A stretch of 64,000 nt of DNA. Source: Candidatus Nomurabacteria bacterium. Lineage in GTDB: Bacteria; Patescibacteriota; Minisyncoccia; Phycocordibacterales; UBA9973. The stretch covers positions 530,444 through 594,443 of the forward strand of contig CP060230.1 in NCBI GenBank assembly GCA_023898605.1, written 5' to 3'. Of this stretch, positions 1,257 to 61,163 are shown piece by piece. The translations under genes were made by a program, and so were the position numbers. The notes beneath the pieces are model-generated. The model made no database searches. It had not been told where the DNA came from and saw nothing but the letters and a program-made list of their open reading frames with translations. Each line of letters begins with the position of its first letter. The stretch's first letter is position 1.

Positions 1257-1331
1257 AAAGAGATTGATTCCCTTTTAGTATATATATACATATCCGTAAA
1301 ATCAAACCTTTTATATGGTAAACTTCTACCA

Positions 1332-1466
1332 TGAGAATCATATCTTGGAACCCCGAACAATCTCTCACAAGTTCGAGATTTTACGGGGCGAGAAGTGGTC
1401 ACTATTTTATTCGCAGCTCAATAAAGTGTTAAAATATTTTTATGTTGAGAATCATATCTTGGAACC
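1332..1466 (-). mobile_element. Small GC-hairpin insertion (copy A) with 21-bp direct target duplication at the 5' end of xth
   Basis: TGAGAATCATATCTTGGAACC occurs at 1332-1352 and again at 1446-1466. The 93-bp insert between them carries TTCTCGCCCCGTA on the minus strand, an inner hairpin and TTGTTCGGGG. The module architecture matches copies at 17297-17400 and 60916-61019. Confidence 0.55.
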
Positions 1467-3442: not shown

Positions 3443-4024
3443 TTAACTTAGGTCAAACTTTTTCTTCCAATACTCCTCGTTGTCTATTTTTTCAGCTAAA
3501 ATATAATTTACATTATATCCGAAACCAAACTTATTTTTTGATAAAGATATAAACTCTTCTGCATCATAAGGATATATCCATATACTATTTTGAAACTTTT
3601 GAAAACCAAATTTTTTTAAATTAGTTCTAAACAAATCTCTTTTTGATCTGTTATTTTCGTAAACATCAAAAGAAACCAGTCTCCACTTTTTGTCCCATTT
3701 TTTACTGGTATTTTTATTTGGGAAAATCCCCAGTCTTTCTTTTCCACTTTTTGTTATAATAACTTTTATCTTTTCGCCACTATTTATTTTTTGTAAATAA
3801 CCTTTTTGAATGAGTGAATCAAAAACTTTATTATAACTATTCTTTTTTTGAGGAGTTATATCACCGACTCCTATTTTTTGTAGTATAGATTTTTGAGAAA
3901 AAATCGAGTCTTTTTGGTTTGCGTATAAAATTATTGGGTTTTCATATACAAAGTTTAATACTTTTAAAATATTTTTTCCTAACCTTACTTTTTCAAGTTT
4001 CTTTTTTTCTTTTATCTTTTTCAC
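3443..4024 (-). CDS. PaaX-family-like transcriptional regulator (N-terminal wHTH; C-terminal W-D-K-K-W-R-L-V-S-F-D motif)
   Basis: WDKKWRLVSFDVYENNRSKRDLFRTNLKKFGFQKFQNSIWIYP matches the PaaX signature WDGxWRLVxFxIPE..R..R..L...L..LGF..LQ.SVWI.P. The N-terminus looks like a winged helix. Confidence 0.6.
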   Translation of the reverse strand: MKKIKEKKKLEKVRLGKNILKVLNFVYENPIILYANQKDSIFSQKSILQKIGVGDITPQKKNSYNKVFDSLIQKGYLQKINSGEKIKVIITKSGKERLGIFPNKNTSKKWDKKWRLVSFDVYENNRSKRDLFRTNLKKFGFQKFQNSIWIYPYDAEEFISLSKNKFGFGYNVNYILAEKIDNEEYWKKKFDLS

Positions 4025-9973: not shown

Positions 9974-9991
9974 TTTTTAACTAACAAAAAG

Positions 9992-10166
9992 CTGTTTTAC
10001 TTGCCCAATATAGAAATTTCTTTGTCGGGGCACTGGGATTCCCCTTCGGGCCGGGGTTTTTCCATCGAATTTTCGATATGATAAAACCCTTCGAATCCCA
10101 GGCGTAAAACAAGCAGTTGTTTTACTTGCCCAATATAGAAATTTCTTTGTCGGGGCACTGGGATTC
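9992..10166. repeat. 49-bp direct repeat: tRNA-Pro 3' end plus downstream flank duplicated 125 bp away (att-like)
   Basis: TGTTTTACTTGCCCAATATAGAAATTTCTTTGTCGGGGCACTGGGATTC occurs at 9993-10041 and 10118-10166. The second copy continues into the tRNA-Pro T-arm and body; the first diverges. Confidence 0.6.
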
Positions 10167-14261: not shown

Positions 14262-14528
14262 TTAAGACAAAATATTTTTAAAGTAATCTTTTAGTCTTCT
14301 TTTAAACATTCTCCTGCCCGTGCTAGTTTTTAGATATTTTTCTCTTCTTTTTGCGTCACTTTCAAGAATACAGGCCTCATAATATATGATTTTCCACGGC
14401 ATATATCTTTTGGTTGAAATATTTTGTCCAGCGTTATGTTCTGCAACTCTATCTTTTAAGTTTTTTGTATAACCAAAATACAACTCATTAGAATGTTTTT
14501 TGCTTTGCAAGCAATAAACATAGAACAT
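14262..14528 (-). CDS. GIY-YIG nuclease-domain protein (UPF0213-like)
   Basis: The MFYVYCLQS...LYFGYTKNL..R..EHN pattern matches GIY-YIG. Confidence 0.7.
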   Translation of the reverse strand: MFYVYCLQSKKHSNELYFGYTKNLKDRVAEHNAGQNISTKRYMPWKIIYYEACILESDAKRREKYLKTSTGRRMFKRRLKDYFKNILS

Positions 14529-16714: not shown

Positions 16715-17296
16715 TGACTTTGCTTTTGTGATTATGTCGTCGATGAGTCCGTATTTTTTTGCTTCGTCAGCCTCCATATAGTTGTCTCTATCGGTGTCTT
16801 TTTCTACTTTGTCTATTTTTTGGCCTGTGTTTTTAGAAATTATTTCGTTTAGAACTTTTTTCCATTTGAGTATCTCTCTTGCTTGGATTTCTACATCTGA
16901 AGCTTGTCCTTGTGTGCCACCAAGTGGTTGGTGGATCATGATTCTAGAGTTTGGAAGAGCAAATCTTTTGCCTTTTGCTCCGCCAGAAAGTAGAACTGCA
17001 CCCATAGAAGCCGCCATACCTACACATATAGTAGATACATCTGGTTTTATGTATTGCATTGTGTCGTATATGGCCATACCAGCTGTTACTGAACCTCCTG
17101 GTGAGTTGATATATAGCTGTATGTCTTTCTTTGGATCTTCGTGAGCTAGAAATATAAGTTGTGCGATTACAAGGTTAGAAGTGTAATCGTTTACTTCATC
17201 GTTTAGAAAAACGATTCTTTCCTTGAGTAGGCGAGAGTATATGTCGTAAGCTCTTTCTCCAAATTGTGATTTTTCTAGTACGGTAGGTATCAACAT
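16712..17296 (-). CDS. clpP: ATP-dependent Clp protease proteolytic subunit
   Basis: Catalytic-triad context ([12 protein letters not shown]) in a 194-aa ORF. Confidence 0.9.
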
Positions 17297-17400
17297 AAGA
17301 TAAAAATTGATTAAGTTTATAAAAGTCTTTATTTGTTAAATCAGCACTTCTCGCCCCGTACTAAAAATGAAGCAACGAGCGCTTTTTAGTATTGGGGGGA
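17297..17400 (+). mobile_element. GC-hairpin element copy B (degenerate; no clean flanking duplication)
   Basis: Sits in the clpP-tig intergenic region. A ~52-nt AT-rich segment is followed by CTTCTCGCCCCGTA, an inner hairpin (ctaaaaa...tttttag) and TATTGGGGGG. Confidence 0.4.
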
Positions 17401-17460
17401 CTGTTGAGATTAACATATGTTTTTACTAATTAGTTTTGTATTTTCGAATAATAACAATTT

Positions 17461-18564
17461 TTATTCCTTTCCACCAGCTTCTCCTTCTAGGATTTTTATA
17501 ACTTCTTCGTTTCTAGATGTTTCTTCTACGTAGTTTCTGACCCTTATTTTGTCAGCTCCAGGATACATACCCATAAGAGCGTCTACTTCTTTGTCTATTT
17601 TTGCATCATCTATTTTTATTTTTTCCTCTTTTGCAATTTCTGAGAAAACCATTTGTAGTTCAACTCTTTTCTTTGCGCTTTCTTTCATTTCTTCGCGGAG
17701 TGCTTCTGGTGTTTTGTTTATTTGTTTTAGATAATCTTCTGTTTTCATGCCAGAACCTTTGATTCTTGCATCTAGTTCAAACATCATGATATCTATTTCG
17801 TTTTCTATCAATATTTCTGGAAGAGATACTTTTGATTTTTCTCTTATTTCATCAAGTATTTTCATTCTCCTTTCGTTTTTTTGAGCAGCCTTCTTTTCTT
17901 CTTCTAGATTTTCTTTGATTTTTTTCTTTAGATCATCTATAGATTCGAAGTTTCCAACACTTTTTGCGAAGTCATCGTTCAATTCTGGTATATCTTCTGG
18001 TTTTATGTCATGAGAGTGTGGATGTGAGTGGTCGTGTTCGTCGTTTCCATGTTCTCTTGCGTGTGCGTTTTGTTCTGCTTTCATGTTTTGAAGTTCTTTT
18101 ATAACATTCTCAACATCTTCGTCTTTTACTTGAGAAGGTGCTTCTTCTTTTACACCACTCGCAATTTTTTTGTAATCCGGAAGAGATATTTCTGGCATAA
18201 GAAAAGTAACTATTTTGAATTCAACAGGTGAACCGCTCGCTACTTTTGTAAGAGATATTTCTGGTTGTCCGATAGGGGATAGGTTATTTTCTGTTATTGT
18301 TTCTATATATCTATCTAGTATGAGATCTTTTGCAGTTTCTTCTATTAGTTTCAGATCACCTACTTGGTTTTTGACCATATCAAGAGGCGCGTTTCCTTTT
18401 CTGAAACCTTTGATCTCTATATTTTCAGCCAGTTTTTTGAGACTTTTTTCTTTTTCTGTTTCTATAAGCTCTACTGGTATTTCTCCCAAAATCTCTATTT
18501 TGCTGTCTTTTTTCTCTCCTAGTTTTATTTTTATTTTATCCATAACACAGCACACTTTATACAA
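17461..18564 (-). CDS. tig: Trigger factor (short form)
   Basis: The N-terminal GFRKGNAP motif and gene order next to clpP fit tig. The likely start is Met8 (MDKIKIK). Only 367 aa, so the PPIase region appears reduced. Confidence 0.65.
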   Translation of the reverse strand: MYKVCCVMDKIKIKLGEKKDSKIEILGEIPVELIETEKEKSLKKLAENIEIKGFRKGNAPLDMVKNQVGDLKLIEETAKDLILDRYIETITENNLSPIGQPEISLTKVASGSPVEFKIVTFLMPEISLPDYKKIASGVKEEAPSQVKDEDVENVIKELQNMKAEQNAHAREHGNDEHDHSHPHSHDIKPEDIPELNDDFAKSVGNFESIDDLKKKIKENLEEEKKAAQKNERRMKILDEIREKSKVSLPEILIENEIDIMMFELDARIKGSGMKTEDYLKQINKTPEALREEMKESAKKRVELQMVFSEIAKEEKIKIDDAKIDKEVDALMGMYPGADKIRVRNYVEETSRNEEVIKILEGEAGGKE

Positions 18565-22058: not shown

Positions 22059-24140
22059 ATGATAAAAAGTTTTAGCAAAATAATTCTTATATTCTCAATA
22101 CTATTTTTGTTTGGATTTAGTAAGTCTTTTGCTGGGACAGGGGACAATGTTACCGGTTGGGCGTGGTCTTCCAACATAGGTTGGATATCTTTCAACTGTG
22201 TTACAGATAGCTCTTGTGATGCCGGGACACTTTTTGATGATCCTGGAGCAGATGGGACACTCGAAGGTCCTGGCGGAGACACTATTCCAGGAACAGAAGA
22301 CACAGGAGGAACAGATGCTGGAACAGGATTTATAGAAAATTCTTGGAGGATGCTTGTTAATAAAACTATAGAGTCTTTCGATACTGCTTTTGTTTCACCT
22401 ACATATAAAATATACAAAAAACTCTCTTATCTTATAAAAGATACTCTTTCTCCAGAGACTATATACGCAGATGATCTAGATGGGATTTCTCCTCCTGGAG
22501 TTGATTATGGAGTAAACATAGATCCTCTGACAGGAAGTATGTCTGGTTATGCATGGAGTGAAAATATAGGTTGGATTTCTTTCAACGAATCTTCAGGATG
22601 CCCCGGAGAAGGTATTTGTAGTCCTAGTATGGACCTTGGAACTGGCGCACTAAAAGGTTGGGCAAAGGCAATAAACGGAAACACATCTGACGACGGTTGG
22701 GATGGGTGGATCTCTCTTTCTTGTAAGAACCACGATTTGGTTATTTGTTTTCCAAGCTACAAGGTTAAGTTTGATCTTGGAACAGGTGCAACAAGCGGTA
22801 CAGATAGATGGGCATGGGGAAGCGATGTTATAGGATGGGTATATTTTGGAGATGTTGTTGTTGATCTACCTCAGCCAACACTTTCTCTCGTTGCTACTCC
22901 AAATATTGTTTCTGCTGGCGGATCTACTTCACTTTCTTGGACATCTACAAGTACTACTTCTTGTAGCGCATCTTCTTCTGACGCACTTTGGACCGGTACA
23001 AAACCTACAAACTCTATAGCACCGGAGTCAGTTATACCTTCTGGCGATATCGTCCTTACAGATGAGTTTGGAGATATACACTATTACACAAAATATGTGA
23101 TGGATTGCGATACAACAACAGGTGAACCGATTTCTTCAGAAGAATATGTAGAAGTTATATACGAAGATGGTGTTTCAGCTGGAAGTTTGGTTCTACAAGC
23201 ATCTCCAACAATTGCTTCTGGTGACAACGGATACAAAGTAAAACTTACTTGGTATTCTCCTACAGCTACAACACTCACATCTTGTGTTGCAAACTCTTAC
23301 TCTATAGCAACTGGAACAGACGTCCCTCTAACTGGAACTGGCTGGACAGGACCACAAACATCACTAACAGCTACAAACTCTTACACCGCAAGTACTCCGG
23401 GTGAAACTATATTTGTTCCAGAAAATCCGACAAAATACTCTATAACTTGTGAAGATGTTCTTGCTAGCGAAAGCGTAACTGCAACAACCGTTGTACCTAG
23501 AGTTCTAGCGGTGCCGAGTGTAGATATATTTGCATCGAGTCCGTCTGGAACACCTGGATCATACAACGTTGATCTTTCTTGGGAACCACTAAACGTGACT
23601 TCATGTACTGCTTCTAACGAAGATGGAATATCTGGTTGGTCTGGACCAAAGTCTGCGCTACCTGGTCTCAATACTCAAAGTGACGTTAGTCTTTCTGACG
23701 GAGGGACAACTTATACCATTACTTGCTCTGGTGCTTATGGTTCTGCGAGTGATTCTGTAACAGTGTTCCCGCCTTCTGATCCTGGAGATGACGGAGATAC
23801 TTCATGTACAGATTGTTTCCCAGCTGATGGACCTGCTGTTGCGCTAACATATGCTGATTTTATTCCTGGAGTATTGGTTCCTGGATCTGTGACACTTATC
23901 TGGAAAACACAAGACGTTGTTTCTTGCGAAGCTTCTTCTACTGATACTCTCTGGACTGGGCCAAAAGCTGCAACTCCAGATGGAATATATACAGAGGTAG
24001 GGGTGCTCTATACATCACCGTTTGAAGATTACACAATTACATGTATAGGCGACGACGACTCAACAGTTTCTGACACGCTTAAGCTCAACGATTCTTCACC
24101 GAAAAACCCAATTGTAAGACCGACTTGGATAGAGTTTTAA
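22059..24140 (+). CDS. Large secreted repeat protein (G(W/Y)AWS.NIGWISFN repeats, then four ~90-aa LSW..SC.AS..W.GPK modules)
   Basis: Signal peptide. GWAWSSNIGWISFNC, GYAWSENIGWISFNE and WAWGSDVIGWVYFGD. Repeated LSWTSTS..SCSAS / LTWYSP..SCVAN / LSWEPLNVTSCTAS / LIWKTQDVVSCEAS modules. Confidence 0.65.
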   Translation: MIKSFSKIILIFSILFLFGFSKSFAGTGDNVTGWAWSSNIGWISFNCVTDSSCDAGTLFDDPGADGTLEGPGGDTIPGTEDTGGTDAGTGFIENSWRMLVNKTIESFDTAFVSPTYKIYKKLSYLIKDTLSPETIYADDLDGISPPGVDYGVNIDPLTGSMSGYAWSENIGWISFNESSGCPGEGICSPSMDLGTGALKGWAKAINGNTSDDGWDGWISLSCKNHDLVICFPSYKVKFDLGTGATSGTDRWAWGSDVIGWVYFGDVVVDLPQPTLSLVATPNIVSAGGSTSLSWTSTSTTSCSASSSDALWTGTKPTNSIAPESVIPSGDIVLTDEFGDIHYYTKYVMDCDTTTGEPISSEEYVEVIYEDGVSAGSLVLQASPTIASGDNGYKVKLTWYSPTATTLTSCVANSYSIATGTDVPLTGTGWTGPQTSLTATNSYTASTPGETIFVPENPTKYSITCEDVLASESVTATTVVPRVLAVPSVDIFASSPSGTPGSYNVDLSWEPLNVTSCTASNEDGISGWSGPKSALPGLNTQSDVSLSDGGTTYTITCSGAYGSASDSVTVFPPSDPGDDGDTSCTDCFPADGPAVALTYADFIPGVLVPGSVTLIWKTQDVVSCEASSTDTLWTGPKAATPDGIYTEVGVLYTSPFEDYTITCIGDDDSTVSDTLKLNDSSPKNPIVRPTWIEF

Positions 24141-53149: not shown

Positions 53150-54910
53150 ATGTATATTTTTTCTAGAAAAAACTTACTAAAAATTTTTATTCTGACTTGT
53201 TTTATAGCACTGCCTTTTTCGAAAGTTTTTGCAGCAGAAATATACGATGATTACAGGTATGCAGTGATACTGGAAGATAGTAGTCGTATAAATATGAAAA
53301 CCGACTACGGTGTAAATGTTTACAATAGCTCTGTTACCGGTTATGCATGGAGTGAAAATTATGGATGGATAAACTTCGATCCTTCTGGTGATGAGGGTGT
53401 AGAAAACAACAACGGAACACTTCTTGGCTACGCCTGGGGAGAAAATTTAGGATGGATAAACTTTGCTCCAACAAATGGTGGAGTAACAATAGATTCTGAC
53501 GGATATTGGCACGGTTATGCATGGAGCGAGAAAGTTGGATGGATTGCTTTCAACTGTAGCGAATCAACACTCTGTGACACATACAAAGTTAGATCACAGT
53601 GGACATCTAACGGTGCATCTGGCGGCGGCGGAGGTTCATCTGGTGGCGGATCTTCTACTACAACAGAAGAGCCGCCCGTAATACCTCCTACTGTAGAGAA
53701 TCCACCAGTAGATTCTGGAGATACTACTCCTATAAACAACAATGATAATCCTGGAAACGATGGAGACATCTCTAGCCCAGATATAGATACTCCCGTACCA
53801 CCAATTCCTCCTATAGAGGAACCAGATATTCCTCTTCCTACTGAGGACAATGTTCCAGATAACTTCAATCCTTTTTCGGACGCAGTTTTGAGTAGCATTT
53901 CTATACTTGAAGATATAATAATCTCCACACTTTCGCTTGCTGAAAACATAGTGTCTTCTCCAGAAGGAGATACAACTGTAAAAATAGTAACAACTCTAGG
54001 TATTATCTTTGCAGGTATTTCTTCTATGATATCTGTAATGTTTGCCAACCCTCTATCTATATCTGAGATAGTTTTGATACCAGTTAGACTTTGGTCACTT
54101 CTTTTGACTGCTCTTGGTATAAGAAAGAAAAACAAACCTTGGGGTGTTGTATATGATGCTGTAACAAAGCAACCACTAGACCCGGTTTACGTTACTCTTT
54201 TTGACGAGATGAATAGCGAAGTTGGGAGCACTATAACTGATATTGACGGTAGATACGGATTCTTTGTTAGTCGTGGTAGATACAGAGTAGTACCTGGTAA
54301 AACTCACTATAGTTTTCCGTCTAGTCTTATGGCCGGCAAAGACAAAGACGAACTTTATAACGATATATATCACGGAGAAATTTTTGAAATCACAAGTGAT
54401 GAATCTATTATTACAAAAAACATTCCTATGGATCCAGTTGGTTTTGACTGGAATGAATATGCAAAGAGTCAAAAAAATCTGAATCTATTCTACTCTAGAA
54501 TGGATAAATTCTTGGCAGTATTTTCAGACGTGTTGTTTGTTCTAGGTTTTGCTATTTCTATAATTGCTACAACCGTTTCTCCTGTTTTGTATAACATAAT
54601 CATAATGTCTCTATACGTAGTCATGCTATTTTTGAAAGAAACTGTTTTGAGACCAAAACCACAAGGAAGAATAATTTTTGGAGGTGAACCACTTGCTTTT
54701 GCTATTGTAAAAGTTTATGACGCAAACACCGGCATGATGATTGGTAAAAAACCTACAAATAAAAATGGAGCATTCTATCTACTAGTAGGAAAGGGAACAT
54801 ATTACTTAACTATCGACAAAAAACTAGATGACGGTACTTATCAAGAAGTACACAAAACAAGCAGTTTTGAGGCAAAAACTGGTTATATAGACCAAAAAAT
54901 ATCTTTTTAA
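53150..54910 (+). CDS. Surface/membrane protein with three GYAWSEN.GWI.F repeats, a Gly/Ser/Pro-rich linker, TM segments and a carboxypeptidase-regulatory-like beta-sandwich domain
   Basis: GYAWSENYGWINFDPS, GYAWGENLGWINFAPT and GYAWSEKVGWIAFNCS. DGRYGF and KNGAFYLLVGKGTYYLTI motifs lie near the C-terminus. Confidence 0.6.
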   Translation: MYIFSRKNLLKIFILTCFIALPFSKVFAAEIYDDYRYAVILEDSSRINMKTDYGVNVYNSSVTGYAWSENYGWINFDPSGDEGVENNNGTLLGYAWGENLGWINFAPTNGGVTIDSDGYWHGYAWSEKVGWIAFNCSESTLCDTYKVRSQWTSNGASGGGGGSSGGGSSTTTEEPPVIPPTVENPPVDSGDTTPINNNDNPGNDGDISSPDIDTPVPPIPPIEEPDIPLPTEDNVPDNFNPFSDAVLSSISILEDIIISTLSLAENIVSSPEGDTTVKIVTTLGIIFAGISSMISVMFANPLSISEIVLIPVRLWSLLLTALGIRKKNKPWGVVYDAVTKQPLDPVYVTLFDEMNSEVGSTITDIDGRYGFFVSRGRYRVVPGKTHYSFPSSLMAGKDKDELYNDIYHGEIFEITSDESIITKNIPMDPVGFDWNEYAKSQKNLNLFYSRMDKFLAVFSDVLFVLGFAISIIATTVSPVLYNIIIMSLYVVMLFLKETVLRPKPQGRIIFGGEPLAFAIVKVYDANTGMMIGKKPTNKNGAFYLLVGKGTYYLTIDKKLDDGTYQEVHKTSSFEAKTGYIDQKISF

Positions 54911-57969: not shown

Positions 57970-58563
57970 ATGGGAGAATTCAAAATTTATAAGAATGGGC
58001 ACCCTGTCCCTTCAGAGAGTCTCCTTATAAAAGAAATAAAGAGAGACCCGCCAGTGAGAATTGAAAAAGAGAGAAAAAGTTTGGTGCAAATCGTTGCCGA
58101 CGAAAGCCATAACCTTTCAAACTCTTTTTTAAAAGAAGCTTTTTCCCCTCCAGAAAACCCAGAGAATTTTTTGATCAAAAAGGAAGGTCTGGTCGTTATA
58201 GACCACTCTTCTTTTGGAGAGGGAGTAAATCAAATATTCTCTTTTCTAAGCAGTAATTCGGTAAAAGACGGATCTTTGGTTCTCATAACATATGGTTTAC
58301 CATCAAACATGAGAAAAAAAGATATTTTACCAATAAGGGAACTTATCTATCAAAAGGTTTCGTTTGCTGTTGTCGTAGGAGAAGACATATCTGTCGAAAG
58401 GAGATTCAATAAATTGAACTCTATTGTTCACGCCAACACTCTAGAGGAAGCCGTTTTTTTCCTCAAGAACATGGACAAGGACAAGATAGGATGGTTTCTT
58501 CCATGGAAAAGAAACGGGGATTTTGAAAGCATTTTTCTCAAGGATGCACTACGCGCGGTTTAA
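57970..58563 (+). CDS. Hypothetical protein inserted between rpsG and fusA
   Basis: 197-aa ORF of unrecognised family. It has its own upstream terminator and a downstream hairpin (CGCGCGGTTTAAACCGCGC). Confidence 0.45.
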   Translation: MGEFKIYKNGHPVPSESLLIKEIKRDPPVRIEKERKSLVQIVADESHNLSNSFLKEAFSPPENPENFLIKKEGLVVIDHSSFGEGVNQIFSFLSSNSVKDGSLVLITYGLPSNMRKKDILPIRELIYQKVSFAVVVGEDISVERRFNKLNSIVHANTLEEAVFFLKNMDKDKIGWFLPWKRNGDFESIFLKDALRAV

Positions 58564-58785: not shown

Positions 58786-60938
58786 AAAGAGATTATCCAC
58801 TAGAAAAAGTAAGGAACTTTGGGATTATTGCCCACATCGACGCCGGAAAAACTACTACTTCCGAGCGTGTTTTGTACTACACCGGTGTTTCTCACAAGAT
58901 TGGTGAGGTTCACGAAGGTGAAGCTACAATGGACTGGATGGAACAAGAAAGAGAGAGAGGTATTACTATTACCTCTGCTGCTACTACTTGTTTCTGGACA
59001 CCTACATACGTAGGCGACAAAGAAGACAAAAAAAGCAAATTTAGGTTCAACATAATCGACACACCTGGACACATCGACTTCACAGTTGAGGTGAAAAGAT
59101 CTATGAGAGTTTTGGACGGAGCAGTTGTTGTGTTTGACGGTGTTGCTGGTGTAGAGCCACAATCAGAAACAAACTGGAGATATGCCGACGAAGCCAACGT
59201 GCCAAGAGTTTGTTTTATAAACAAATTAGACAGAACAGGTGCTTCTTTTGAGAAGTCATATCAATCTATTATAGATAGACTTTCAAAGAGTGCAGTTAGA
59301 ATGCAGCTTCCTATCGGACTAGAAGATCAGCACGAAGGTGCAGTAGATCTTCTTACAAGAAAAAGCTACAGATTCTCAGGAAAAATGGGAGACGAAATCA
59401 TAGAAGGTGATGTCCCAGAAAACATGAAAGAAGAAGTTGAGAAATACCGAAATGAACTTGTAGAGTCTATCGTTTCAAACGATGAGACTATGATGAACGA
59501 CTATCTAGAAGGCAAAGAGCCAGAACTAGCTGTTCTAAAAGCAACACTTAGAAAGGCAGTTATCGCAAACAAGATCTTTCCTGTTTATTGCGGTAGTGCC
59601 CTAAAGAACAAAGGTGTTCAACTAGTTCTAGACGCAGTTGTTGACTTTCTTCCTTCTCCTCTAGATGTTCCTCCTGTAAAAGGAATTGATCCTGAAACAG
59701 AAGAGGTAGTAGAGAGAAAGACAGAAGACGGAGAACCTCTTTCTGCACTTGCTTTCAAAGTTGCTACAGATCCATTTGTAGGACAACTTATATTCTTCAG
59801 AGTTTACTCTGGAACCCTTTCCGCTGGTAGCTATGTCTACAACCCTAGAACTGGTTCAAAAGAAAGAATCGGTAGAATCTTGCGTATGCACGCAAACCAA
59901 AGAGAAGAAGTAAAGAAAGTTTACGCTGGAGAAATCGCAGCAGCTGTTGGACTAAAAGATACTATTACATCTGACACACTCTGTGACGAAGAACACCCAA
60001 TCGAACTAGATAGAATCGTGTTCCCAGAACCAGTTATCTCTCTTAGAATCGAACCAAAGACAAAATCTGATCAAGAGAAACTCGGTATGTCACTTTCTAG
60101 ACTTGCTCAAGAAGACCCAACATTTAGAGTTTCAACTGACTCTGAAACAAACGAAACAATCATCGCTGGTATGGGAGAACTTCACCTAGACATAATCGTA
60201 GACAGACTAAAGAGAGAGTTCTCAGTAGAAACAGTTGTCGGTAAACCTCAAGTTGCTTATAGAGAAACAATTACAGGTGACGCTGATGTAGAAGGAAAAT
60301 ACATCAAACAATCTGGAGGTAGAGGTAACTACGGTCACGTAAAGATCAAAGTAAAACCACTAGATCAGAAGATGACAAAGGAAGATATAGAAAAACTACC
60401 GAAGAACGTAAAGAGAGAAGACCACTTCGAATTCATCAACAACATCAAGGGAGGTGTTATTCCACAAGAATACATTCCTGCTTGTGAAAAAGGATTTAGA
60501 GAAGGTCTAGACAGAGGAATACTTGCAGGATTCAAGATGGTAGATGTTTCTGTTGATCTATATGACGGTAGTTATCACGAAGTTGACTCAAACGAAATGG
60601 CGTTCAAGATCGCTGCTTCTATGGCTATTCAAGAAGCTTGTCAAAAAGCTAGACCAGTTATCCTAGAGCCTATGATGAAGGTAGAAGTTGTAACTCCTGA
60701 CCAGTTCATGGGAGACGTTTCTGGAAACCTTTCTTCTAAGCGTGGTCTTATCGAAGGTATGGAAGATAGAGGTATGAACAAAGTTGTAAAAGCTGTTGTT
60801 CCTCTTTCTGAAATGTTCGGATTCATGACAACACTTAGATCTATGACTGAAGGTAGAGCATCATTCAACATGGAATTCCTAAGATATGATATTGTTCCAC
60901 AAAACGTTGCGGATGAAATAATCAAATCACGTAAATAA
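58782..60938 (+). CDS. fusA: Elongation factor G
   Basis: G domain [10 protein letters not shown] and DTPGHIDF. 718 aa. Confidence 0.9.
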
Positions 60939-61041
60939 TTGAAATTAGAAAAGGCTAGATAATCAATTCTCGCCCCGTACAAAGAACCGCATGAATTCAT
61001 GCGGTTCTTTTGTTCTGGGGTTCCACAAAACGTTGCGGATG
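60894..61041 (+). mobile_element. GC-hairpin element copy C with 22-bp direct duplication of the fusA 3' end
   Basis: GTTCCACAAAACGTTGCGGATG occurs at 60894-60915 and 61020-61041. The 104-bp insert carries TTCTCGCCCCGTAC (60967-60980), a perfect inner hairpin (60981-61010) and TGTTCTGGGG. The insert also supplies the current fusA stop. Confidence 0.55.
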
Positions 61042-61097
61042 CCTGTTCGCCTTGGGTGGGAAATCATAAAATCTAGAAAATAATATAAAAATAAATC

Positions 61098-61126
61098 AAA
61101 AAAACCGCGCCTTGCGGTTTTTTTGA
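61098..61126. terminator. Bidirectional terminator (AACCGCGCCTTGCGGTT + T-run)
   Basis: A-run, hairpin, then T-run. Confidence 0.55.
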
Positions 61127-61163
61127 TTTGGTGTAATCTTTTGTTTAAATAAAAAGTACAATT

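Follow-up and report, generated by a model that had tools for sequence, protein, structure and literature searches.

Hairpin units between duplicated gene ends in Patescibacteria: a candidate family of small homing elements

Introduction

Members of the bacterial candidate phyla radiation (CPR) have tiny genomes and are thought to be poor in mobile DNA. Here we describe a small repeated element in a 64,000-nucleotide (nt) stretch of a Candidatus Nomurabacteria metagenome-assembled genome (MAG; contig CP060230.1, positions 530,444 to 594,443), hereafter the window. The element lies at the 5′ end of xth and recurs at clpP and fusA (copies A, B and C). At each place the working end of the gene is followed by a hairpin module and then by a second, displaced end of the same gene. 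A preliminary description of the window had interpreted copy A as a hairpin mini-insertion with a 21-bp target duplication. On balance, we favour the reading that copy A belongs to a large family of small, non-coding, non-autonomous homing units that would integrate by means of about 20 nt of identity, and we rate the family, by type, as a site-specific homing or integrative element.

Results

The xth locus

The window contains two copies, and no more, of the 21-mer TGAGAATCATATCTTGGAACC; they lie at 1332-1352 and 1446-1466 and are perfect. None of 100 shuffles contained a match with 3 mismatches tolerated, so that the duplication reported earlier is real. On the minus strand, the 93 nt separating the copies carry the 13-mer TTCTCGCCCCGTA (from 1394 to 1382), an inner hairpin (aaatctc/gagatt) and GTTCGGGG. 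Read along this strand, the locus begins with the xth 5′ end (as its reverse complement), followed by ACAT, which is the source of the new xth start codon, by 47 nt of AT-rich sequence ending in ACCAC, and by TTCTCGCCCCGTA; it continues through the small hairpin and GTTCGGGG into a second xth 5′ end, beyond which the sequence is unrelated. We divide unit A and its surroundings into a left block (L), a hairpin module (M) and a right block (R), as follows.

1395..1465, minus strand: left block, about 71 nt; working xth 5′ end, with repeat copy 1446-1464
ATG 1442-1444 / TTG 1445-1447: start codon in the left block, with 47 nt of upstream region ending in ACCAC (1395-1399)
1427-1435: extended -10 box of the left block, TGTTAAAAT, facing xth; layout as in the xth relatives at loci L252 and L254
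1351..1394, minus strand: hairpin module, 44 nt, TTCTCGCCCCGTA - AAATCTC(gaacttgt)GAGATT - GTTCGGGG
1282..1350, minus strand: right block; displaced older xth start, with repeat copy 1332-1350 and old ATG 1331-1333
1316-1324: extended -10 box TGGTAAACT in the old upstream region of the right block, which runs toward the divergent neighbour gene 855-1256

This anatomy retains part of the earlier interpretation. The working xth start codon, together with the extended -10 promoter, does lie within the inserted part, and the upstream ATG-AGA-ATC is the displaced older start. The 93-bp insert does contain the hairpin, but the moving unit would be about 71 nt of gene end (one repeat copy included) plus the 44-nt hairpin. 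Likewise, the 21-bp duplication exists but is not of fixed length: it would be the homologous overlap of incoming and resident ends, which elsewhere reaches the terminus or is recoded synonymously.

The upstream copy reads ATG-AGA-ATC (MRIISWN) and the working gene ATG-TTG-AGA. A public Xth protein that is 100% identical has 277 aa; therefore, xth probably starts at the TTG. In both the new and the old upstream regions the extended -10 box stands 6-7 nt before the ATG, as it does in relatives; each is therefore a genuine promoter region of xth, and the two differ in origin. Past the gene terminus, L and R of copy A are unrelated. A comparison of related xth 5′ ends, which the preliminary description had called for, found one intact and occupied (L109), others with decayed modules (L252/253, L257/258) and others empty (L254-256), the empty loci having the promoter directly upstream of the gene.

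A second duplication lies at the other end of the gene. The last xth codons are repeated 36 nt apart (2246-2277 / 2282-2313, 84% identical; CATTGCCCGATCATG[A/C]TAGACAT), the first copy starting at 2246 and not, as previously given, at 2242. The working end reads ...IMIDIMI-stop and the displaced end ...IMLDINI-stop, with GGGA only between them and no hairpin module. It may be a collapsed unit or plain slippage.

Copies at clpP and fusA

The 13-mer TTCTCGCCCCGTA has three sites in the window, 1382-1394 on the minus strand and 17348-17360 and 60967-60979 on the plus strand. In module orientation, all three copies follow a common plan, namely a gene end, about 51 nt, TTCTCGCCCCGTA, the hairpin, GGGG and a second gene-end copy. 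The parts of units B and C are the following.

17277..17347, plus strand: left block of unit B; working clpP start, CAT 17294-17296 (gene on minus), and 51 nt of upstream region ending in GCAC
17348..17399, plus strand: hairpin module of unit B, TTCTCGCCCCGTA ... TATTGGGGGG
17398..17470, plus strand: right block of unit B; diverged clpP-start remnant between the module and the tig stop codon
60895..60966, plus strand: left block of unit C; working fusA 3′ end, with repeat copy 60894-60915, recoded EIIKSRK, stop 60936-60938 and 28 nt downstream
60967..61020, plus strand: hairpin module of unit C, TTCTCGCCCCGTA - CAAAGAACCGCATGAATTCATGCGGTTCTTTTG - TTCTGGGG
61021..61134, plus strand: right block of unit C; displaced older fusA end, with repeat copy 61021-61041
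61042-61059: insert of 18 nt in the right block of unit C, CCTGTTCGCCTTGGGTGG
61060-61083: old EIIKSRK codons and stop in the right block of unit C
61093-61129: terminator-like hairpin in the right block of unit C

Both copies share the architecture of copy A, as had been claimed; the repeat itself is perfect in C and diverged in B. Copy B, which lies between tig and clpP, has no perfect repeat. Instead, the 19 nt past its module are the synonymously diverged first six clpP codons (MLISTV vs MLIPTV, about 13/19 identical), the right block carrying (GG)ACTGTTGAGATTAACAT, the reverse complement of ATG TTA ATC TCA ACA GTC, which encodes MLISTV. Copy B has the same architecture as the other copies but is older. 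In copy C, the repeat is perfect over 22 nt (60894-60915 / 61020-61041), and the two fusA ends encode the same 14 residues with different codons.

Two features of the displaced fusA end deserve mention. First, the 18-nt CCTGTTCGCCTTGGGTGG sits inside it exactly where the perfect repeat stops, and resembles two module ends from which the hairpin has been deleted. Second, the terminator-like palindrome (61093-61134) matches module C over its 3′ half at 82% identity but lacks the TTCTCGCCCCGTA end. Judging from this likeness, it is probably an older degenerate module that now serves as a terminator.

Distribution of the family

A scan of one genome per species with the exact motif plus GGGG gave 120 hits, about 100 of them chance matches in GC-rich genomes and about 17 true. 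Every true hit came from a CPR MAG (Nomurabacteria, Saccharibacteria, Parcubacteria and others). A metagenome scan with a stricter pattern gave at least 120 loci, and public data hold hundreds of further module copies, all in Patescibacteria. The search of related genomes for module and duplications proposed earlier thus establishes that they are not unique to this contig. In 940 kb of CPR loci there are 129 exact and 21 variant modules, compared with 2 in shuffled controls; on some contigs, five modules occur within 9.5 kb, and variants of the module 5′ end exist (for example, TGCCTGCCCCGTAG). Viral contigs gave 11 hits, mostly chance matches in GC-rich DNA. When the whole window was searched against Rfam at gathering thresholds, four tRNAs only were returned and the module was unmatched; copies A and C searched with E-values up to 10 gave generic hairpin noise only. 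Exact-motif and keyword searches of the literature found no description of the element.

The identical architecture is present on more than 100 independent contigs from different assemblies and is therefore not an assembly artefact. It is an insertion-type structure, as first supposed, and not local noise. These data bear on the simplest rival, local tandem duplication by genome-specific replication slippage at the hairpin, or an error of assembly. The xth 3′ duplication (2246-2313), having no module, does look like simple slippage, and some of the arrays described below could come from unequal crossing-over. However, besides the independent contigs and assemblies, which already contradict it, local duplication faces the facts that L and R of copy A are unrelated beyond the terminus, that copy C is recoded and that the same M occurs across divergent genomes. 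We find this rival scarcely credible.

Geometry, junction and targets

Anatomy was compared across 121 distinct copies, and spacing and junction were counted over 142. In 102/142 copies, the sequence after GGGG repeats a stretch starting 68-73 nt upstream of the module (mode 71). The junction base after GGGG is T in 141/142 copies, and the left repeat copy begins with T in 98%; the bases before the latter show weak preferences only (-2 T 59%, -1 purine 73%). The 71-nt left block has no conserved positions but the last five, (A)(C/G)CAC. The module is an imperfect hairpin of 35-60 nt with conserved ends, (A)CCAC-TTCTCGCCCCGTA ... TAC(T)GGGG, and the whole unit measures about 110-125 nt and is non-coding.

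More than 50 conserved genes are targets, always at a terminus. They include tsaD (20 copies), typA (9), fusA (8), uvrB (7) and xth (3), the genes for transketolase, sodA, secF, tig, ychF, clpP, H+-pyrophosphatase (H+-PPase), ribosomal proteins and aminoacyl-tRNA synthetases, and many tRNA 5′ ends. Orientation goes with the kind of gene end: at 5′ ends (67 copies) the module is antisense to the gene and at 3′ ends (37 copies) it is in sense, the working gene being on the 5′ side of M in all cases. The distance from gene terminus to M is anywhere between 7 and 62 nt. The left stretch is the working gene end and the right stretch a displaced, decaying copy thereof. Along the genome, the gene body is followed by L, M and R in turn, with the unit standing directly before the stretch of the resident gene that it matches. 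L has become the end of the gene; R, which begins right after GGGG, has been pushed outward, hence the direct repeat. The earlier opinion that such long flanking repeats are not target duplications of the transposase type agrees with these data.

The constant spacing brings in what is the main rival, guide-directed insertion at a fixed distance, as by Tn7 or CRISPR-associated transposons (CAST). Here, L would be native, M plus the next ~20 nt would be a guide RNA matching the gene end, and the element, consisting of M and what comes after, would land 66-71 bp downstream of the match start. A repeat start 68-73 nt from M, a fixed orientation and the choice of conserved gene ends, as in Tn7 and CAST homing, are all expected from it, as are a scaffold followed by a 3′ guide and the stability of the M strand (see below); the 72-nt R block of copy C, moreover, ends exactly at the start of the next hairpin. 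Nevertheless, R is not a 20-nt spacer but a whole gene terminus with its own start or stop codon and a native-looking promoter or terminator, and conservation is lacking at the right end. The conserved ACCAC is always found at the end of L, the L blocks of an array are identical and its M copies nearly so, and the units, at about 115 nt, have no Tn7-like ends or genes. Furthermore, many of the supposed guides mismatch their target at 5 or more of 20 positions. We therefore judge this rival unlikely, its explanation of the spacing notwithstanding.

The targets also bear on whether the units are scars of larger integrase-driven elements (phages, plasmids or islands), later deleted so that attL and attR were left close together. 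Integrase-driven elements replace a gene end and leave its direct repeat, which is the very structure seen here; tyrosine recombinase genes lie near xth in two relatives, and on one contig a comF-like gene lies between two copies of the hppA end. On the other hand, one conserved module at more than 50 different targets, a uniform unit size in place of random deletion end points, and modules that stand antisense at 5′ ends speak against it. No long-distance repeat was found anywhere in the loci around those copies that lack a nearby one. We hold an origin as such scars to be very unlikely.

The hairpin and its strand

The modules fold better than their shuffles (mean z -3.8; 90% below -2). Covariation, a check advised in the preliminary description, was assessed on the 55-nt module class (18 sequences), in which 93.6% of cells pair compared with 71% in shuffles, and 0/500 shuffles reach 93.6%. 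Double changes occupy 81 cells against 28 expected, 12 of the 20 pairs covary, and controls slid along the sequence pair at only 41-55%. The lower stem CCCCGUA/UAC(U)GGGG is invariant and the covarying stem has 20 bp; there are two single-base bulges on the 3′ arm of M, and the top is variable with a conserved apical loop, GCAYUCG. The M strand is stabler than its complement in 70/95 modules and the reverse holds in 8, with 58 G-U pairs, which points to a function as RNA or single-stranded DNA (ssDNA) of the M strand. We take M to be a hairpin that is under selection in its single-stranded state.

A conserved and covarying hairpin would also be expected of a cis-regulatory or antisense RNA motif of the host, the repeats being incidental. 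In support, an RNA of the M strand would be antisense to the gene start at 5′ targets, and a sigma-70-like site (TTAACA-17-TAAAAT) stands immediately upstream of M in copy A. But copy A is the sole copy with a good site and no promoter is fixed in position family-wide; at 3′ targets the sequence after M is sense, not antisense; no Rfam family matches; and duplicated gene ends, arrays and variable occupancy are left unexplained. We thus consider a regulatory motif highly improbable.

Movement of the units

Several comparisons point to mobility. The same hairpin occurs in genomes whose gene bodies and flanks are about 25% divergent (L126 and L135, both at tsaD), and the same hairpin is also seen at more than one kind of target (fusA in L048 and L106, a tRNA in L088). 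Copies that occupy different genes of one genome can have in common both the hairpin and some 45 nt beside it (L001, L013), and in one subfamily the 21 nt that separate the start codon from the module are the same at uvrB as at an ABC-ATPase gene. Tandem arrays of the form [L M][L M][R] contain L blocks of 69-70 nt that are identical, followed by a diverged third copy (L131, L220), and degenerate second modules follow R in copy C of the window and in L019, L048 and L128.

L and R differ with 3-nt periodicity, and their 473 mismatches have a symmetric, transition-rich spectrum. By this measure they look like orthologous gene ends, not like error-prone or adenine-directed copies. In many young copies, the identity ends exactly at the terminus (tRNA position 1, start or stop codon) and the flanks beyond are unrelated. 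In at least eight copies, a perfect stretch of 17-22 nt next to M gives way to 65-80% identity still inside the coding sequence. This perfect stretch is identical within each genome and different between genomes.

Orthologue-like differences (3-nt periodicity, symmetric spectrum) would also arise if the units spread passively, with no dedicated machinery, by natural transformation and RecA, the displaced gene end acting as the right homology arm and M perhaps as an uptake or terminator signal. A length of about 20 nt comes close to the least identity that RecA needs for pairing, and recombination mosaics between near-identical CPR contigs (L096 vs L179) fit as well. Yet passive spread cannot create the first duplication at a new gene, and it leaves unexplained the exact GGGG|T junction (141/142), the constancy of 71 nt over more than 50 targets, and an invariant 13-mer across CPR phyla with a covarying stem. 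Passive spread is, in our estimation, quite unlikely. In short, passive spread by recombination, scars left by integrases, slippage or a regulatory role would, taken singly, cover only part of the data.

Some individual loci are worth recording. At the sodA 3′ end of L131 (1450-1700), two perfect 69-nt blocks are followed by a module with a second module core in its loop, nested at the A/T junction of GCTA|TGC, so that the core of the hairpin may be mobile by itself. In L220 (4680-5000 and 6500-6850), two H+-pyrophosphatase 3′ regions with modules flank a comF-like phosphoribosyltransferase gene, and in the second copy the left block is absent, the module being bordered directly by a gene-body fragment of 42 nt on one side and by the start of the repeat on the other. 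L096 and L179 align at 99-100% identity except at one edge (L096 1866-1960), where 94 nt contain 34 mismatches with a 3-nt spacing. This edge looks like a recombination mosaic between CPR strains.

Discussion

A homing reading and its difficulties

We take the unit, with somewhat more confidence than doubt, to be L plus M, that is, a replacement terminus (~71 nt) of a conserved gene joined to a hairpin. Such a unit would integrate directly before the part of the resident gene that it matches, and the incoming gene end would then take over. Targeting would be by ~17-22 nt of nucleic-acid identity next to the 3′ end of M, through guide-like or annealing-dependent integration of an intermediate that carries the identity stretch and is possibly circular or terminally redundant, rather than by a fixed site recognised by a protein. 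A putative trans-acting enzyme would recognise M as a single strand, either RNA or ssDNA from the M strand, and repeated landing or unequal crossing-over would generate the tandem arrays. The unit could land inside essential genes without killing the host because it brings its own gene end. The homing reading would account for the rule of orientation and for the recoding of the ends. It would also explain why promoters and terminators look native on either side of the module, why arrays exist and how essential genes can be occupied.

A bolder proposal is that the hairpin and the following ~20 nt are the guide (RNA or ssDNA) of a programmable integration or cleavage system of Patescibacteria. 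It would home into essential-gene termini with a rescue copy, a ‘cut/insert and rescue’ mode with a measuring step of ~71 nt, retargetable to dozens of genes. We offer this tentatively, as something possible rather than probable.

Several observations weigh against the homing reading and the roles it assigns. First, no enzyme, transcript or circular junction was found, and the open reading frames (ORFs) of the window include no obvious TnpB, tnpA, reverse transcriptase, HUH protein or integrase. Second, the ~20-nt bump in identity is also produced by identity ending at the gene terminus in many recent copies. In an unbiased register, moreover, the first 20 nt are conserved at 0.70 versus 0.70 for the next 20-40, which gives no sign of long-term selection for a working ‘guide’; any requirement for identity therefore acts at integration and is not maintained afterwards. 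Third, the same M stands beside unrelated L blocks (L126 vs L135), so that L and M are not always co-inherited and hairpin swapping or gene conversion must be invoked. Fourth, an all-against-all BLAST of 130 loci gave 29 near-identical pairs, none polymorphic at a module; with no same-species pair with and without the unit, the assignment of L as incoming and R as resident rests on parsimony. Fifth, -10 boxes upstream of M show no positional enrichment family-wide, which leaves a dedicated promoter for an M RNA unsupported. Finally, the homing reading offers no mechanism for a block length of 71 nt across more than 50 targets.

Candidates for the machinery were also considered. L249, the sole phage-like contig with a module, was rejected as an autonomous version, since it encodes structural proteins only. 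Within the window, a 193-aa protein with a winged helix-turn-helix and a PaaX-type Cas2-like domain is encoded at 3443-4024 (minus; Pfam E 1.9e-18), and an 88-aa stand-alone GIY-YIG nuclease at 14262-14528 (minus; E 1.7e-15). Proteins of both kinds recur on module-bearing contigs, at a frequency no higher than RNase H, and were rejected as the enzyme.

Comparison with known systems

In logic, the family resembles integrative elements that rebuild the end of their target gene, in form, hairpin-ended ssDNA elements (IS200/IS605 type, attC, Helitron/IS91) and, in geometry, Tn7/CAST homing; among the features testable here, it fails at least one that defines each of these. In the fate of the gene end there is a parallel with integrative elements that enter the end of a tRNA, tmRNA or protein gene and leave attL/attR repeats, and with their integrase-less derivatives, the cis-mobilizable elements (CIMEs), whose incoming DNA supplies a new terminus, leaving the old one as the far-side direct repeat, and whose repeats can be recoded. 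Indeed, at xth, clpP, fusA and more than 100 other copies, the repeat is a gene terminus with a working replacement end. Unlike these elements, the units here are ~110-125 nt long, encode nothing and have a fixed ~71-nt block, and a single conserved hairpin is used at over 50 different ends of genes, 5′ as well as 3′. Nor do they show the few att sites and the integrase of such elements: one module is common to more than 50 targets, and neither long-range repeats nor an adjacent recombinase were found in the loci.

With Tn7 at attTn7 and with CAST, the family shares the use of conserved gene ends as safe sites and a fixed distance and orientation (68-73 nt in 102/142 copies, always in one orientation). 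It differs in having no Tn7-type ends, 5-bp duplication or kb-sized cargo, and in a ‘guide’ that continues into a full gene terminus; no tnsB, tnsC, tniQ or cas ORFs are present in the window.

The hairpin invites three further comparisons. The palindrome-associated transposable elements (PATEs) of the IS200/IS605 type, and TnpB omega RNA, resemble the units in the strand-specific end hairpin, the guide-like flank after it and the small, non-autonomous format. However, a single conserved hairpin is present here instead of subterminal hairpins at both ends, and long homologous repeats instead of a fixed 4-5-nt target motif (T at +1 in 98%, weak preferences at -2/-1). Compared with omega RNA, the scaffold is far shorter, and no tnpA or tnpB was seen among the window ORFs. 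Integron attC sites are likewise imperfect hairpins with conserved ends, bulges on one arm, a variable top and strand-specific function, and their arrays resemble those here in the tandem order of short content plus hairpin and in a junction at G|T. But the ends here are CGCCCCGTA / TAC(T)GGGG|T and not RYYYAAC / GTTRRRY, there is no intI or attI platform, the arrays lie at housekeeping gene ends, and the ‘cassettes’ are gene ends of 71 nt that have homology to the target. Rolling-circle elements (Helitron/IS91) share a hairpin just inside the 3′ end, a purine/T insertion site and the capture of adjacent host sequence; they differ in that no Rep/HUH gene was identified here, the left end is not conserved and target choice depends on homology.

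The stem-loop RNAs of TIGR-Tas systems (tigRNAs) are frequent in CPR and have hairpins with variable stems, and CUU at the stem base where M has CAC-UUC. Their two ~9-nt spacers, set within an internal loop, have box C/D nucleotides on their flanks, and their arrays lie beside tas genes (PMC12045711; bioRxiv 10.64898/2026.09.09.750476). Identity with TIGR-Tas was rejected on architecture: M is a near-continuous helix (93.6% paired, two single-base bulges), and the matching sequence lies outside M. A diversity-generating retroelement with template and variable repeats (TR/VR) was rejected on the mismatches between L and R, which are symmetric, transition-rich and not confined to template adenines. 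Last, repetitive extragenic palindromes and bacterial interspersed mosaic elements (REP/BIME, with RAYT) consist of a 5′ GTAG and a palindrome, intergenic and without target repeats. Most modules here read CCCC-GTAG...CTAC, and they are flanked by gene-end repeats.

Implications and other features of the window

One 13-mer with its hairpin marks the family at dozens of essential gene ends, at several copies per 10 kb in some genomes, and the family crosses phylum-level CPR lineages. The spare gene end would explain how the element survives in streamlined genomes, and the element would provide ready-made promoters and terminators for core genes. If targeting by ~20 nt of identity and a trans-acting enzyme both prove true, the family would amount to an insertion system that is compact, programmable by sequence and, by nature, directed to many targets. 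On the practical side, displaced gene-end fragments and altered start or stop codons affect gene calling in CPR MAGs, as with the ambiguous ATG/TTG start of xth.

Other observations in the window are given for completeness. The tRNA-Pro 3′ end and 41 nt downstream are duplicated at 9983-10041 and 10108-10166 (59 nt, 125 nt apart and 95% identical). Taken in the minus-strand direction, the 66-nt insert folds into hairpins, ends in GAAGGGG right before the second copy and contains an inverted piece resembling a tRNA T-arm. The layout is that of the family studied here, the module being different, and no homologue of the insert was found in the fetched loci. Between rpsG and fusA, in an otherwise conserved str operon, a 197-aa ORF (57970-58563) has no convincing Pfam match. 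The coding motif GYAWSENIGWI(S/N)F occurs at 22155-22586 and 53339-53554, in two large secreted or membrane proteins encoded about 31 kb apart.

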